From Patescibacteria group bacterium (GTDB lineage Bacteria; Patescibacteriota; Minisyncoccia; Phycocordibacterales; GWA1-40-21): 33,723 bases of DNA. The translations under genes and the position numbers were made by a program. The stretch lies in assembly GCA_018971765.1 (NCBI GenBank), contig JAGXAA010000001.1, forward strand, positions 1 through 33,723, read 5' to 3'. Under the pieces are notes generated by a model, which was given only the letters and a program-made list of their open reading frames with translations, had not been told where the DNA came from and made no database searches. How positions within the stretch are numbered: the stretch's first letter is position 1; every line of letters starts with the position of its first letter. Below, piece after piece: positions 26,756 through 29,761 of this stretch.

Positions 26756-27085
26756 TCAATAATTTCTAGTTTTCCTCTCCTTGAAAAAATCCTCAAGACG
26801 ATATGCCGCGCCCTTGAGACCGACATGCCAGTTTGTCACCGACTCGACCGGCTGATTTTCCTTGTAGTCGTAGATGGTGATGACCGCTCTGCCCCTTCGG
26901 GCAGTTGTTTTGAATGCCCACTCTGCACGGACCTTGCCGTCGCCGGACCGCCATATACCCTCTCTGGTCCGATCGTGTGGTCGGCCGAAGCACTTTACGA
27001 GGTCGTCGTATGATCCTTGAAGATATCCTGCAAAGCCCGAGCCGATGACATCCTTTGGACCTGCTTTTATAAATCGATTTTTCAT
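26756..27085 (-). CDS. Hypothetical protein inside the GC-rich insert, downstream of the RT
   Basis: The ATG at 27085 gives MKNRFIKAGPKDVIGSGFAGYLQGSYDDLVKCFGRPHDRTREGIWRSGDGKVRAEWAFKT...ITIYDYKENQPVESVTNWHVGLKG (109 aa). Its GC-rich codon usage matches the RT and target genes. I recognise no family. The longer track ORF would run through a structured intergenic region. Confidence 0.45.
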   Translation of the reverse strand: MKNRFIKAGPKDVIGSGFAGYLQGSYDDLVKCFGRPHDRTREGIWRSGDGKVRAEWAFKTTARRGRAVITIYDYKENQPVESVTNWHVGLKGAAYRLEDFFKERKTRNY

Positions 27086-27246
27086 GCACGGACGAACATA
27101 CCCCTGCTTTCTTAGGAAGTCTAGCGTCCGAATCTCTGAATTTTCGGCACACGCCCTTGAAGTGGCCCGAAGCCGTGGAAATGGCTTACACCAAGCGGAA
27201 AAGCGCACACGCGGGCGAACAGGGGCCGAATTCAGGGGTATGTTCC

Positions 27247-28077
27247 CTATAAGCCAGCAACCTTTTTCTTTAAATCATTGCCGTCGCCATGACTTAGCAA
27301 TCCGAGGTAAGACTGAACGACCTCTGGTTTCTTCTCCGAATCCCTGATTTTCTTAAACATTCTTTTCTTAGTTGTTGTACGCAGAACCCGATGATGTGGA
27401 AAATGCACCCAGCCGAGAAAGTCGATACCTGACGCTGCGGTCTTCAGAAATATTTTATCCGGATGGAGCGACAGCTTCAGTCTCTCCTCGAGAAAGTCAT
27501 GGACTTTCGGTAGCACTTCCATGAGCACGCCTTTGTCATGGTGCATGATCACAAAGTCGTCGGCGTAGCGGATGTAGTACCTCTGCCTGAGTCCGTGTTT
27601 TACAAACTGGTCGAATTCATTCATGTATATGTTCACGAGAAGCTGCGAGGTTAGGTTGCCGAGCGGCAATCCTTTGCCTGGACCTGTACTCTGAAAGCTG
27701 CTGACGGTCCGTTCAATGAGCCAGATAGTGTCAGGGTCGCTTATGTGCCGCTTCACGATCTGAACCATGGTTGCCTGATCGATTGAGGCAAAGAATTTTC
27801 TGACATCGCACTTCAGGACCCAGCATGTCCTGCTGTTGCTCTCTGAAACCTGCCGTACGAATTGGTTGAAGCGCTTAAGCGCACGGTGTGTTCCCTTGAG
27901 ATGACGGCAGGAGTAGGAATCGTAGATAAATTTCTTATCAAAAAGCGGATACAGGACGCGGTAGATTGCATGATGCAGAAGCCTGTCGCGGACCGTAGCC
28001 TTATGGATACTCCTTGGCTTAGGATCGCTTATCGAAAATGCCTCATACTCGCCGTGTCGATATGTCTTGGTCCGCAA
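27247..28077 (-). CDS. DGR-type reverse transcriptase (frame continues upstream to the ATG at 28215 but is interrupted by TAA at 28197-28195)
   Basis: SISDPKPRSIHKATVRDRLLHHAIY (motifs 1-2), KCDVRKFFASID (motif 3), LPLGNLTSQLLVNIYMNEFD (the DGR-typical GxxxSQ motif 4), YIRYADDFVIM (YxDD), GIDFLGW. The track start at 28077 is TTG. The same frame upstream reads MTTRIS*SIKNLCDAWNEFIRGKKSKKDVAEFSLNLSQNIFRLHEDL. Confidence 0.9.
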   Translation of the reverse strand: MRTKTYRHGEYEAFSISDPKPRSIHKATVRDRLLHHAIYRVLYPLFDKKFIYDSYSCRHLKGTHRALKRFNQFVRQVSESNSRTCWVLKCDVRKFFASIDQATMVQIVKRHISDPDTIWLIERTVSSFQSTGPGKGLPLGNLTSQLLVNIYMNEFDQFVKHGLRQRYYIRYADDFVIMHHDKGVLMEVLPKVHDFLEERLKLSLHPDKIFLKTAASGIDFLGWVHFPHHRVLRTTTKKRMFKKIRDSEKKPEVVQSYLGLLSHGDGNDLKKKVAGL

Positions 28078-28213
28078 ATCCTCATGAAGCCTGAAAATAT
28101 TTTGCGAGAGATTGAGGGAAAATTCAGCGACATCCTTTTTCGACTTCTTACCGCGAATAAATTCATTCCATGCGTCGCATAGATTTTTGATGGATTATGA
28201 TATTCTTGTAGTC

Positions 28214-28609
28214 ATGATTCATTCCCGTAAAGAAGGCGTTTTACCCCCCCCCCGAGAATTACCACAAGTAATTCTCAAGTCGAAAGAGACATACCATTTC
28301 TGGCTGACGCTATATCGTGATTTTCCAAAGGTTGAGCGGTTTGGCATAGGAAATAAAGTAGAGCAGGCTTTTCTTGATGTTCTTGAATACACCTTTTGTC
28401 TGACCTATCTCCCACCGGAGCATAAGGTTCCCATGCTCAACAAAGCGATCACGAAACTCGACATCGTGAAGTTTTTCGCCCAGCTCGCATGGGAGAGCAA
28501 GCTCATTCCAACCGATAAATATTCAGACCTTATCGCGGGCCTTGAAGAAGTCGGCCGACAGCTCGGCGGATGGAAGAAAGGCCTACAAAAGAAAACTTCT
28601 GCTAATTGA
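28214..28609 (+). CDS. avd: Avd-like accessory variability determinant (four-helix-bundle protein)
   Basis: 131 aa from the ATG at 28214. FPKVERFGIGNKVEQAFLDVLEYTF...LDIVKFFAQLAWESKLI...GLEEVGRQLGGWKKGL resembles Avd and 23S-IVS four-helix-bundle proteins; compare the BPP-1 Avd ...AEVGRILGSWI, recalled from memory. It sits next to TR and RT but on the opposite strand. Confidence 0.75.
   Translation: MIHSRKEGVLPPPRELPQVILKSKETYHFWLTLYRDFPKVERFGIGNKVEQAFLDVLEYTFCLTYLPPEHKVPMLNKAITKLDIVKFFAQLAWESKLIPTDKYSDLIAGLEEVGRQLGGWKKGLQKKTSAN
28244..28253. repeat. C10/G10 homopolymer tract
   Basis: ttaCCCCCCCCCCgag. It encodes the PPP of avd codons ~11-14 and lies 29-38 nt upstream of the RT-frame ATG on the other strand. 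Confidence 0.9.
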
Positions 28610-28616
28610 GCAGAAG
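28596..28616. promoter_or_regulatory. 7-bp hairpin straddling the avd stop codon, 12 nt from the TR 3' end
   Basis: CTTCTGC-TAATTGA-GCAGAAG. On the minus strand it lies immediately 3' of TR. Confidence 0.5.
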
Positions 28617-28627
28617 AAAGATAACAG

Positions 28628-28749
28628 TTTCGAGAGAACACCTGGTTGCCATCGTTCCACCTGTTCGGGTTCTCGACGGAGTTCGCATTGACGTTCCAGC
28701 CGTCGTCGTTCCAGTTCACGTTGACCGTTCGGAGCACACCAGCGTTATC
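28628..28749 (-). repeat. DGR template repeat (TR)
   Basis: It aligns without gaps to 29094..29215 (offset 466). On the minus strand it reads ...DNAGVLRTVNVNWNDDGWNVNANSVENPNRWNDGNQVFSRN, rich in AAC/AAT codons. Confidence 0.9.
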
Positions 28750-28984
28750 GTACATGGGACCATCTGCATCACCGCCCACCAAATCATGACAAGCTGAATT
28801 TTATTCGGGACATCGAAGTCCGCCAGTCTCATGTACCAATTCTTATTCTTTTTTTGAAGAGACTTCTCTCACTCTCGCGCAAGGCGTACCCAGCGCGACT
28901 CTCGGGAAAAATATCCTAAGACCATGACGCGGAAGCCGTGACCGCCGCGTAACACATGATTTCGGAAGCAGTATACCAGTTTGA

Positions 28985-29026
28985 ATATAAAAAATTAACC
29001 CCCGGTCTGCCGAAGCAAACCGAGGG
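28985..29026 (-). terminator. Rho-independent terminator after the DGR target gene
   Basis: Minus strand: CCCUCGGUUUGC-UUCG-GCAGACCGGGGG. This is a 12-bp stem whose two non-Watson-Crick pairs are G-U only on the minus strand, with a UUCG tetraloop. It is followed by TTAATTTTTTATAT. Confidence 0.6.
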
Positions 29027-29050
29027 TCAAAGTGTCCAAGGGACAGAGGA

Positions 29051-29761
29051 TCAGGCCGCCGGAGCCGAAGGTTCCGAGGATTCGAGAACAGAATTGCGAG
29101 AGAACACCTGGCTGCCATCGCCCCACCTGCTCGGGTCCTCGACGGAGCGCGCACGGACGAACCAGCCGCCGCCGCACCAGAGCACGCGGACCGCGCGGAG
29201 CACACCAGCGACATCCTTGATGTAGAAGAGATTGGCCCAGCCGTTGTTCAGGAGAACACCTTCTTCGCCATGCTTCTGCTTTTCCATGAGGGAAAACATC
29301 TCGGAGAGAGTGGTTTCAGCTTTCGCTTCGCCACCGAGCTCCTCAATGATCGTACTATCCACTGATGCCTTGCGCAATTTTGCATAGTGCAGGGTTTGTT
29401 CACTGATAGGGTCTTCGATTTTGCCGTCACCGTTTAGGAACCACGCCTTGAAGTTGCCGCCGAGGTAGCTGATCTTCACCGGAGCGTTACGCTTGGTGTT
29501 GATCACAAACCTCTCTTTGGCGACGAGCTTGCCGGTCGTTGCGGGAATGACGATCGTCGAGACGAGCTCGAGGAGATCGGTCCGGGGCTTCGGAGCGGGC
29601 GCTTGCGCGACCTCACCGTTACTCCAGCAGGACTCTTTGCGGAGAAACCGCTTGAGTTCTTCTTCCCATTGGCTGCCGTCCTGGCCGCCGAGGTTCACAA
29701 TGAGCTGATTGAGCGGTCCGGTTGTGAATTCGCGGAGCGCCTTGCTGAGCATAGTATCCAT
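29051..29761 (-). CDS. DGR target (variable) protein; VR forms the C-terminal ~40 codons
   Basis: 236 aa with AAAGGAG 7 nt upstream of the ATG. C-terminus: ...DVAGVLRAVRVLWCGGGWFVRARSVEDPSRWGDGSQVFSRN. It matches the TR translation except at TR Asn/Asp/Thr codons. Confidence 0.85.
   Translation of the reverse strand: MDTMLSKALREFTTGPLNQLIVNLGGQDGSQWEEELKRFLRKESCWSNGEVAQAPAPKPRTDLLELVSTIVIPATTGKLVAKERFVINTKRNAPVKISYLGGNFKAWFLNGDGKIEDPISEQTLHYAKLRKASVDSTIIEELGGEAKAETTLSEMFSLMEKQKHGEEGVLLNNGWANLFYIKDVAGVLRAVRVLWCGGGWFVRARSVEDPSRWGDGSQVFSRNSVLESSEPSAPAA
29094..29215 (-). repeat. DGR variable repeat (VR)
   Basis: 122 nt homologous to TR. By hand alignment there are 24 mismatches, and every one falls at a plus-strand T (coding-strand A) of TR. 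Confidence 0.9.

Follow-up and report, generated by a model that had tools for sequence, protein, structure and literature searches.

Diversity-generating retroelements (DGRs) of two described types are closest to the locus analysed here. The element of Bordetella phage BPP-1 has the order mtd-avd-TR-brt (architecture B1, i.e. avd-TR-RT with all parts co-directional), a TR-RT spacer of 140 nt, an adenine-specific TR-to-VR transfer and an RT with the motifs LGxxxSQ and YADD. About 140 nt of RNA after TR are needed in BPP-1, and 207 of 278 DGRs with an Avd carry an Avd-binding stem-loop directly behind TR (10.1101/2023.10.23.563531). The second type is architecture B3, TR-(avd)-RT, with target/VR, TR and RT in one orientation, avd inverted and a single target gene; it makes up 90% of the CPR DGR set (Wu et al. 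2018, NAR 46:11, PMC5758913).

Architecture of the element

The window, a 33,723-nt stretch of DNA from a Patescibacteria group bacterium, contains the core of a DGR of the Patescibacteria/CPR type, composed of target/VR, TR, an opposite-strand avd and RT (Table 1). Target/VR, TR and RT are encoded on the minus strand, as an earlier note on this DNA had stated and as the list of open reading frames and the TR/VR repeat at offset +466 confirm, and avd on the plus strand. All 24 TR/VR mismatches between 28630 and 28746 fall on TR adenines, a specificity common to BPP-1 and the window. The target gene matched no Pfam family above the cut-off. According to the window coordinates the core order is TR, reverse-strand avd, RT, which corresponds to B3 and not to the co-directional B1: in comparison with BPP-1, avd differs in position and strand, being inverted and placed after TR, and the TR-to-RT distance amounts to 405 nt and is occupied by avd. 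Two further observations of the earlier note were borne out, namely that the inverted avd fills the space between TR and RT and that avd and RT stand head to head, leaving no intergenic space for promoters; the overlap of their starts is a feature of the window relative to BPP-1.

The same arrangement recurs among the relatives. It is B3-type in 132 of 134 non-redundant RT relatives, the inverted avd adjoins RT in 149 of the 151 loci with upstream DNA, and TR is preceded by VR on the RT strand in 107/109 loci. Like the CPR DGRs, the RT and Avd homologues detected here originate from Patescibacteria MAGs. A CPR DGR architecture of the same kind is reportedly described by Paul et al. 2017 (Nat Microbiol 2:17045), said to be the main paper on these elements. 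The layout had been termed non-canonical in the earlier note, but it departs from BPP-1 only and is identical to B3 of Wu et al. 2018; comparison with catalogued architectures, proposed there as the check that could overturn the claim, gave it as commonplace. An inverted avd between TR and RT is thus the standard, already catalogued layout of CPR DGRs and not unusual. Taken alone, it makes the locus one more representative of a known class, with an RT that is broken by a frameshift in this copy.

Table 1. Features of the DGR locus in window coordinates
Feature	Position	Strand	Remarks
RT body, 315 codons + stop	27247..28194	-	LGNLTSQ and YADD motifs; RVT_1 E = 4.7e-24
1-nt insertion (extra A)	28195..28196	-	frameshifts RT; creates TAA 28197-28195 in body frame
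Homology-supported RT start, first 9 codons MNHDYKNII	28198..28222	-	ATG 28222-28220; frame differs from RT body
avd, 131 aa	28214..28609	+	Pfam bAvd PF22296 above cut-off; alternative in-frame ATG 28190
C10/G10 homopolymer, avd codons 11-13	28244..28253		ends 21 nt upstream of RT ATG; candidate slipped-strand switch
Palindrome GAGAATTAC-N5-GTAATTCTC, 9 pairs	28254..28276		directly adjoins C-run; tenth G-U pair only in minus-strand RNA
Conserved stem-loop (28616-28596) and U-tract (28595-28586)	28586..28616	-	8 pairs, then TTTTCTTTTG; 11-12 nt past TR
TR	28628..28756	-	clean adenine-only core 28628-28749
Sigma-70-like match TCGGCA-18-TATATT	28984..29013	-	candidate TR RNA promoter; 9/12 positions
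Terminator-like hairpin after target gene	28995..29030	-	16 pairs, then TTTTTTATAT; strong; consensus match only
DGR target gene, 236 aa, VR at 3' end	29051..29761	-	ORF; VR in C-terminal codons
VR	29094..29222	-	direct repeat of TR, offset 466, 78% identical

RT and avd genes

RTs of the DGR type are marked by an RVT_1 domain, by [LIV]GxxxSQ in motif 4 and by YxDD. These marks are present in the window RT, the two sequence motifs being shared with BPP-1, and its body, with no stop in 315 codons, shares 91% identity with P0001, an intact homologue of 324 aa. The N-terminus of the RT homologues, MNHDYKNIISIKNL, matches the ATG at 28222 and not that at 28215. The latter (28215-28213), which the earlier note had taken as the RT start, is in the body frame but encodes only MTTRIS before the TAA at 28197-28195. 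The TCATGA palindrome, said to be a start shared by both genes, is present at 28212-28217; as RT begins at 28222, it represents merely the RT codons xxT-CAT-GAx. The overlap between the RT start and the avd ATG at 28214 is 9 nt, and overlapping starts of avd and RT occur in 66/86 relatives, TCATGA in only nine of these 86.

The inserted nucleotide parts codons 1-9 from the body, so that the window lacks an intact RT frame. The insertion site reads ATCATAATCCATC in the window, L005 and L006, and ATCATATCCATC in L001-L004 and L178-L181; the change is thus common to three assemblies and is present in two independent MAGs. The RT body offers no canonical start ahead of TTG 28077, and the conserved N-terminal 48 RT residues would therefore be lost. 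Programmed +1 frameshifting at the insertion was considered and rejected on sequence grounds, ATA-A-TCC providing neither a slippery nor a stop context. As judged from these features, the window DGR is a member of its family by descent that is probably inactive at present through the RT frameshift. Whether the element is a decaying one in this lineage, with no part of it working at present, is a closer question, which we answer in the affirmative by a narrow preference. The insertion shared by three assemblies, the prospective loss of the 48 residues and a VR identical in the window, L005 and L006 argue for it, whereas the remaining 315 stop-free RT codons with their 91% identity to an intact homologue, an avd in frame and the intact TR, VR and hairpin argue against it; the intactness of the last three implies that any decay is recent. 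This reading is compatible with the overall explanation preferred below and not opposed to it.

The plus-strand ORF, described as Avd-like in the earlier note, indeed exists and its product matches bAvd PF22296 with 42.1 bits (cut-off 40; E = 1.4e-10). A total of 197 Avd homologues were found, and among the 120 matches listed all but one have PF22296. The AlphaFold model (pLDDT 88.2) consists of four helices (residues 18-34, 39-63, 68-94 and 100-129) and superposes in Foldseek onto BPP-1 Avd (4DWL) with TM values of 0.73/0.86-0.89 and an rmsd of 1.5-1.8, indicating a common fold. The best structural matches were 2GSC and 2RLD (TM 0.76-0.80/0.89-0.91), which are 23S rRNA intervening-sequence (S23-family) proteins belonging to the pentamer-forming four-helix-bundle family shared with Avd; S23-family proteins have no link to an RT and a TR, whereas the window Avd is linked to both. 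A PDB sequence search with Avd gave nothing relevant, and the relation came from the fold search. On the basis of the profile match and the predicted structure, ORF 28214-28609 is a genuine Avd four-helix bundle.

Transcription of the TR region

The hairpin reported in the earlier note at 28596-28616 is real. Our scan assigns 8 pairs to it, with the avd stop codon sitting in its loop; TR is followed by a GC-rich stem and a U-tract as in an intrinsic terminator. Such a stem-loop with a U-tract (at least 6 U in 9 nt) is found in 77/97 relatives, compared to 9/485 shuffles (2%) and 20/484 random windows (4%), and a stem of at least 6 bp follows TR in 88/97 relatives, mostly at a distance of 12 nt. 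A stem-loop immediately downstream of TR is common to BPP-1-type DGR RNA and the window; the U-tract behind it is a feature of the window. From its sequence the post-TR stem-loop looks like an intrinsic terminator and, as it is positioned like the Avd-binding stem-loop, it may also have a putative Avd-binding role. In this function the stem-loop and U-tract would end the TR transcript, and TR RNA, avd mRNA and RT mRNA would be three separate transcripts instead of a single RNA running antisense through avd.

The earlier note had proposed such a single minus-strand RNA, extending from TR through antisense avd into RT. The antisense avd part would take the role of the BPP-1 spacer, pairing between sense and antisense RNA would couple the Avd and TR-RNA levels, and the hairpin would serve solely as Avd-binding stem-loop, not as terminator. 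The need of BPP-1 for a spacer of ca. 140 nt and the stem-loop after TR in 207/278 DGRs (10.1101/2023.10.23.563531) are in line with this proposal, as are the failure of our scan to give a strong RT promoter and the somewhat better folding of the antisense-avd RNA (28640-28215) relative to shuffles (z = -2.74). A BPP-1-like pairing was not found. Antisense avd and the sequence upstream of TR are not complementary beyond expectation (mean z = 0.00 in 97 loci, a crude test with imprecise TR 5' ends), and a distal duplex between TR-upstream sequence and spacer, like avd:Sp of BPP-1 (cPRT Stop), was not detected at these loci. Moreover, the stem is followed by UUUUCUUUUG in the window, and the 77 relatives mentioned have 6 U or more within 9 nt at this place; with Avd identities of just 32-40% in the clade, a conserved RNA embedded in avd is unlikely. 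Finally, the most populated spacing class (22/110 loci) has the RT ATG 13 nt beyond the G-run. This distance fits a TAnnnT hexamer of partial conservation followed by 7 nt, and suggests a start site of RT's own. We therefore regard a TR transcript antisense through avd as unsupported, TR being followed by a conserved terminator-like hairpin, and the single-RNA model as improbable. With respect to the ca. 140 nt needed in BPP-1 and the folding score, a functional RNA beyond the post-TR hairpin is possible.

Upstream of TR, the sigma-70-like match is weak and no better than shuffles give. The candidate TR transcription unit (28980-28586) has no unusual structure (stability z = +0.86), and an Rfam search of the whole 33.7-kb window found no family at gathering score.

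The repeat tract at the avd/RT junction

Contingency loci based on simple sequence repeats are known from Neisseria, Haemophilus and Campylobacter as poly-G/C tracts in 5' coding regions, and promoter-type repeats include the poly-G promoter spacer of porA and the (TA)n divergent promoter of hifA/hifB. The C10 tract in the window corresponds to such loci in several respects. It is slippable, with a unit that is not a multiple of 3, it separates the avd start codon from the rest of the gene, where indels would change the frame, and it is the sole G/C run of at least 8 nt in the window. A simple repeat is conserved in position at this junction in 125/132 non-redundant loci, comprising 110 G-runs of 7-14 nt, 10 dinucleotide, 4 tetranucleotide and 1 heptanucleotide repeats; the unit sizes are 1, 2, 4 and 7 nt and never 3. 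Outside the junction only 7 G/C runs of at least 8 nt occur in 830 kb of the same loci, which corresponds to an enrichment of ca. 1000-fold. With near-identical flanks, the tract measures 10/9/10 nt in the lineage of the window, 10/12/11/11 nt in that of P0001 and 12/12/11/11/9 nt in that of P0036; the length is polymorphic in 3/7 lineages and unvarying in 4/7, at the level of assemblies and with homopolymer sequencing or assembly error possible. Gene callers report avd either at full length or with 58 aa, in step with the tract length. In L173, L174 and L184, a T-to-G change adjoining the run has the appearance of a phasing error. A recoded version of the tract 28244-28253 would read CCACCGCCT.

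The reading frames on both sides of the repeat were compared among the relatives. In all 86 loci with an RT ATG downstream of the repeat, an ATG on the avd strand is open into it, compared to 33/86 for the RT-strand control, and no ATG, GTG or TTG is found from the repeat to Avd residue 30 in 33/125 loci, the window included. In 21 loci, about one sixth of the relatives, no RT start is present downstream of the repeat, and the RT ORF would have to cross the tract. RT and avd are brought into frame by the same tract-length class in 18/18 such loci (9/9 where it is single-valued); an antisense frame bias was rejected as the source, since the frames agree in only 9/33 and 3/23 control loci. In the window avd is in frame (C10), but over the set the upstream ATG is in frame with the Avd body in only 33/125 assemblies and out of frame in 92/125, the two wrong frames being represented by 62 and 50 cases against 33 in frame. 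This proportion would fit a switch that is mostly OFF, but also programmed frameshifting or a start codon assigned to the wrong place.

The analogy to contingency loci extends to the 7-14 nt homopolymer in the first codons, to unit sizes indivisible by 3, to length differences between near-identical sequences and to the location between divergent genes. Differences concern the gated function, since known loci control surface or restriction-modification genes and the present one a targeted-hypermutation accessory factor, the CPR hosts, the placement of the repeat, in a subset of relatives, inside two overlapping divergent frame-locked ORFs, and the status of the switch, which is putative here. 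We propose the following scenario. Replication slippage in the repeat would move avd into or out of frame with its start codon, located on the far side of the repeat within the 5' end of RT, and would thereby turn Avd, and with it mutagenic retrohoming, on or off in a heritable and reversible manner. In about one sixth of the relatives, one tract-length class would place both RT and avd in frame. In the window, avd is in frame and yet the element is probably inactive at present owing to the frameshift in RT. A role of the C10 run as a phase-variable ON/OFF switch, controlling Avd and in some relatives RT as well, is plausible. The more general proposal is that a contingency locus controls the CPR-type DGRs: slipped-strand mispairing in a hypermutable simple repeat, placed where the 5' ends of the divergent avd and RT genes overlap, would switch Avd and, in about one sixth of lineages, also RT in a frame-locked manner. 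Targeted hypermutation would then be off in most cells, and the target would be diversified by rare ON variants. This proposal appears to us evenly balanced between true and false. As a whole, the combination of a B3 CPR DGR, a separate TR transcript and a repeat-tract switch is the best explanation of the data, and we hold it to be probable.

Alternatively, the C/G run might be a programmed ribosomal or transcriptional slippage site, which would give a constant, low share of in-frame Avd independent of the length of the DNA tract, or the spacer of an RT promoter. The 92/125 out-of-frame assemblies agree with this reading, and a hairpin adjoins the run, as in frameshift stimulators. This palindrome shows compensatory variants in relatives, e.g. 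GAGGATTAC..GTAATCCTC in L030, and hairpins beside the repeat are enriched (mean MFE -5.7 vs -3.6 for shuffles) and strong in about half of the loci, with a weak strand preference. However, the di-, tetra- and heptanucleotide repeats that replace the run in 15 lineages are no slippery sites for ribosomes but substrates for DNA slippage, both wrong frames are represented among the out-of-frame states without a preferred shift, and the phase-locking of RT and avd across the repeat makes sense only as a change in DNA. A promoter spacer would conform to the frequent TAnnnT after the run on the RT strand (+1 T 0.67, +2 A 0.50, +6 T 0.60) and to the ATG at +13 in the class of 22 loci, but the hexamer signal is moderate and lacks a convincing -35 element. 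An RT promoter spanning the G-run, of modest information content and with no convincing -35 definable, is therefore a secondary idea, and we consider slippage site and spacer together an unlikely substitute for the switch.

A tract arising by assembly or sequencing error, or merely reflecting a conserved poly-proline motif of Avd, is hardly credible: homopolymers of 9-12 G are error-prone, the T-to-G change next to the run resembles a phasing error and called Avd homologues have the common motif (T/L)PP(P)R, but the tract is contig-internal between conserved genes in 125/132 loci from many projects and ca. 1000-fold enriched over the rest of these loci, CCC is the rarest Pro codon here (13%), and (GA)n, (GT)n, (CTGG)n or a 7-mer, none of them proline-encoding, take the same site elsewhere. 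As a further point for the switch, the tract encodes part of the N-terminal tail of Avd, which is disordered in the AlphaFold model ahead of helix 1 (from residue 18).

Nothing relevant emerged from a literature search on phase variation, homopolymers or simple repeats in connection with DGRs or avd, an earlier description by Paul et al. 2017 being possible. In Wu et al. 2018 (PMC5758913), neither the repeat nor the post-TR hairpin with its U-tract is mentioned, and the words 'homopolymer' and 'promoter' have 0 occurrences each.

Implications for CPR DGRs

The post-TR hairpin and U-tract suggest that the template RNAs of CPR DGRs are short and discrete and are organised unlike the BPP-1 model RNA. 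If the repeat acts as a heritable ON/OFF switch, a stochastic mutation device would control a targeted mutation device. Such a switch, if true, would help to explain why many DGRs look silent in metagenomes, would make the tract length modulo 3 a sequence-readable marker of the DGR state, and would lend engineered systems for DGR mutagenesis an on/off handle of natural origin.

Architecture of the element and assignment of Avd

All DGR parts of the window except avd are located on the minus strand (see table). A direct repeat of 138 nt with an offset of 466 connects 28619–28756 with 29085–29222, and 24 of 24 differences between the two copies across 28630–28746 fall on adenines of the 28628–28756 copy, which is therefore identified as TR and the other copy as VR. 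The VR sequence is the same in three assemblies, the window and L005 and L006, two MAG contigs of its own lineage which differ from the window by just 7 substitutions across 3.3 kb. Six of these 7 are concentrated in a stretch of ca. 100 nt (29353–29457) that belongs to the body of the target gene and precedes the VR; they show no adenine specificity, and the VR is unchanged. Directly 3′ of RT, a minus-strand ORF of 150 aa (26756–27208) has no Pfam match; small unannotated ORFs follow RT in homologous loci as well.

Coordinates of the DGR parts and associated sequence features
Feature	Position	Strand	Remarks
Target gene ORF, 236 aa	29761–29051	minus	VR at its end
VR	within repeat copy 29085–29222	minus	partner of TR
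Terminator-like hairpin, 16 pairs, strong	29030–28995	minus	after target gene
Sigma-70-like promoter match, weak	29013–28984	minus	precedes TR region, overlaps 16-pair hairpin
TR	28628–28756	minus	copy whose adenines hold the differences
avd ORF	28214–28609	plus	Pfam bAvd, 42.1 bits
Palindrome GAGAATTAC-N5-GTAATTCTC, 9 perfect pairs	28254–28276		directly beside C-run
C10/G10 homopolymer	28244–28253		avd codons 11–13; simple repeat of avd 5′ end
RT ORF	28077–27247	minus	RVT_1, E = 4.7e-24; LGNLTSQ + YADD

The earlier note regarded this arrangement as non-canonical, which is not borne out. It corresponds to architecture B3, TR-(avd)-RT, in which parentheses denote the reverse strand (Wu et al. 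2018, PMC5758913). Among relatives collected by RT homologues of 56–85% identity (80 loci each from GTDB species genomes and from metagenomes, the named genomes being annotated mostly as Patescibacteria/CPR lineages), an inverted avd directly upstream of RT was found in 149 of the 151 loci whose sequence extends 520 nt or more upstream of RT, and in 132 of 134 once near-duplicates were removed. Given these frequencies and the B3 catalogue entry, the layout of the window is the clade norm and already catalogued. An adenine-biased TR/VR pair was detectable in 109 loci, and in 107 of these the VR precedes TR on the RT strand; in relatives with such a pair TR ends ca. 20 nt ahead of the avd stop codon. 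The codon of Avd residue 30 is separated from that of RT residue 10 by a median of 113 nt, and no locus has space for an intergenic promoter region between avd and RT. Exceptions to the layout are L041 with two avd copies, L070 with a co-directional avd 1.6 kb upstream and L157 without an adjacent avd. In L172, a locus of the P0052 lineage, the avd/RT junction has apparently been deleted (locus positions ca. 1440–1510); repeat and avd N-terminus are absent, RT starts straight at the YNNII motif, and the locus looks like a decayed copy.

The bAvd score of the plus-strand ORF is slightly over the Pfam cut-off of 40, and because of this thin margin the assignment was tested further. The database contains 197 homologues; of the 120 listed, a single one lacks the bAvd domain. 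An AlphaFold model based on 44 sequences consists of four helices (pLDDT 88), for which Foldseek retrieved PDB entries 2GSC, 2RLD and the BPP-1 Avd 4DWL (TM 0.73/0.86–0.89) as well as Avd chains from 8UB7, a DGR ribonucleoprotein. The ORF encodes an Avd, as originally proposed.

The hairpin after TR and the proposed transcription units

The hairpin reported after TR is real and comprises 8 pairs on the minus strand (28616–28596), followed by TTTTCTTTTG; the avd stop codon sits in its loop. The survey covered 97 non-redundant relatives in which TR was defined. A GC-rich stem of 6 bp or more is present in 88 of them and most commonly starts 12 nt past the TR/VR alignment end, and 77 of these 88 have at least 6 T in the 9 nt after the stem. 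The same finder detected 9 such elements in 485 shuffled segments and 20 in 484 random windows from the same loci. The outer stem pairs are conserved (CUC...GAG), and the inner ones occur as several Watson-Crick types. Hairpin and U-tract thus bear the signature of a putative intrinsic terminator for the TR-bearing strand. In the RNA of the Bordetella phage BPP-1, the Avd-binding stem-loop spans Sp 3–33, and among 278 Avd-containing DGRs such an element is predicted for 207 (10.1101/2023.10.23.563531). The hairpin of the window occupies the position of this stem-loop, and the two roles are compatible.

Folding and complementarity were used to assess whether antisense avd might contain the remainder of the BPP-1 spacer. 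The antisense RNA 28640–28215 folds somewhat more stably than its shuffles (z = −2.74), and the candidate TR unit 28980–28586 shows no unusual stability (z = +0.86). Complementarity between the 50 nt upstream of TR and the 150 nt past the hairpin is not in excess in the 97 loci (mean z = 0.00) and does not surpass that of a control region. With a terminator-like hairpin after TR and no BPP-1-like spacer pairing detected in these loci, the suggestion that a TR RNA runs antisense through avd and couples their levels is unsupported. The most economical reading of the sequence would comprise three transcription units, namely a short TR RNA ending at 28586–28595, avd and RT. The hairpins after the target gene and after TR would bracket a TR transcription unit of ca. 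390 nt.

The RT start and its frameshift

The minus-strand ATG at 28215–28213 shares the frame of the RT body and encodes MTTRIS before a TAA at 28197–28195. Close RT homologues (320–345 aa) start with MNHDYKNIISIKNLC; in the window, the ATG at 28222–28220 opens MNHDYKNII in a frame different from that of the RT body, and SIKNLCDAW is encoded in the body frame. The DNA at the frameshift reads ATCATAATCCATC in the window versus ATCATATCCATC in relatives, corresponding to one additional A at 28195/28196. As the same 1-nt insertion is present in the independently assembled L005 and L006, it represents a real frameshift in the lineage. It is placed after codon 9 and thereby separates codons 1–9 from the reading frame of the body, in which it also creates a TAA. 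Past the insertion no canonical start codon precedes TTG 28077, and a start there would cost 48 conserved N-terminal residues. The DGR copy of the window is probably inactive at present, and the damage looks recent.

Due to this frameshift, the TCATGA palindrome was misread as a start shared by avd and RT. The true head-to-head pair is formed by RT ATG 28222 and avd ATG 28214 with an overlap of 9 nt (33 nt with 28190 as the avd start), and TCATGA is part of the RT codons AAT-CAT-GAC. It is present in 9 of 86 relatives; divergent starts overlap in 66 of the 86.

A position-conserved simple repeat at the avd/RT junction

The C10 tract is the sole G/C run of at least 8 nt in the 33.7-kb window. 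Its position is kept over 132 non-redundant loci while Avd identity drops to ca. 32%. A repeat of some type is found there in 125 of the 132: a G-run of 7–14 nt (mode 10) in 110, (GA)n, (CT)n or (GT)n in 10, (CTGG)n in 4 and a heptanucleotide repeated 11 times in one; trinucleotide repeats occur in 0/132, and 7 loci have no repeat or a decayed remnant. Away from the junction, 830 kb of the same loci contain 7 G/C runs of at least 8 nt. Tract length varies among near-identical assemblies of the window lineage (10, 9, 10) and within the P0001 (10, 12, 11, 11) and P0036 (12, 12, 11, 11, 9) lineages, and is uniform in four further lineages; the avd called by gene finders matches the tract, being either 123–139 aa long or a 58-aa fragment. 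Hairpins like that at 28254–28276 are enriched in relatives, and covarying palindromes occupy the same place in L030, L065, L021, L044 and L056. Scaffold gaps (N runs) lie directly beside the G-run in L012, L046 and L083, as though the tract interrupted assembly.

From the repeat to the Avd core, 33 loci including the window possess no ATG, GTG or TTG. Among loci with a separate RT ATG downstream of the repeat, 86/86 have an avd-strand ATG open into the repeat, compared with 33/86 for the RT-strand control; as assembled, the upstream avd ATG shares the frame of the Avd body in just 33 of 125 loci. In 21 loci (L023, L059, L101, L104, L109, L133–L135, L151, L153 and others) RT lacks a start codon downstream of the repeat and must therefore read through it. 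The tract-length class that frames RT in such loci also frames avd in 18/18 cases, and in 9/9 where each is single-valued. Antisense frame bias as the source of this agreement is rejected because loci with an RT ATG downstream show it in only 9/33 and 3/23. In the RT-crossing loci the repeat lies in an antisense overlap of ca. 100 nt between the RT and avd ORFs. The start ATG of either gene is complementary to a conserved His codon in its partner, and just 3/18 loci are in frame as assembled.

The repeat might act as a slipped-strand contingency locus which would set the frame of avd, and in some lineages also that of RT, and would thereby gate mutagenic retrohoming; most sampled populations would then be in the OFF state. 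From the sequence comparisons, we consider this proposal about equally likely to hold or to fail. Alternatively, slippage at the tract might take place during transcription or translation, or the G-run might be part of the RT promoter, as suggested by a TAnnnT after the run and an RT ATG at +13 in 22/110 loci. Neither codon choice nor protein structure accounts for the tract, CCC being the rarest proline codon of the genome (13%) and the encoded segment part of a disordered tail before helix 1 of the Avd model. The codon usage and the alternative repeat types at the same place make it very unlikely that the tract is an assembly artefact or simply a poly-proline motif.

Within the papers covered by the literature search, nothing was retrieved that ties DGRs or avd to simple repeats or phase variation, and we claim no priority for the repeat. 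The element is a B3-type CPR DGR with a real Avd, a frameshifted RT, a conserved hairpin with U-tract 3′ of TR and a position-conserved repeat. Its inverted-avd layout is known and typical for the clade, and the repeat may serve as a switch.
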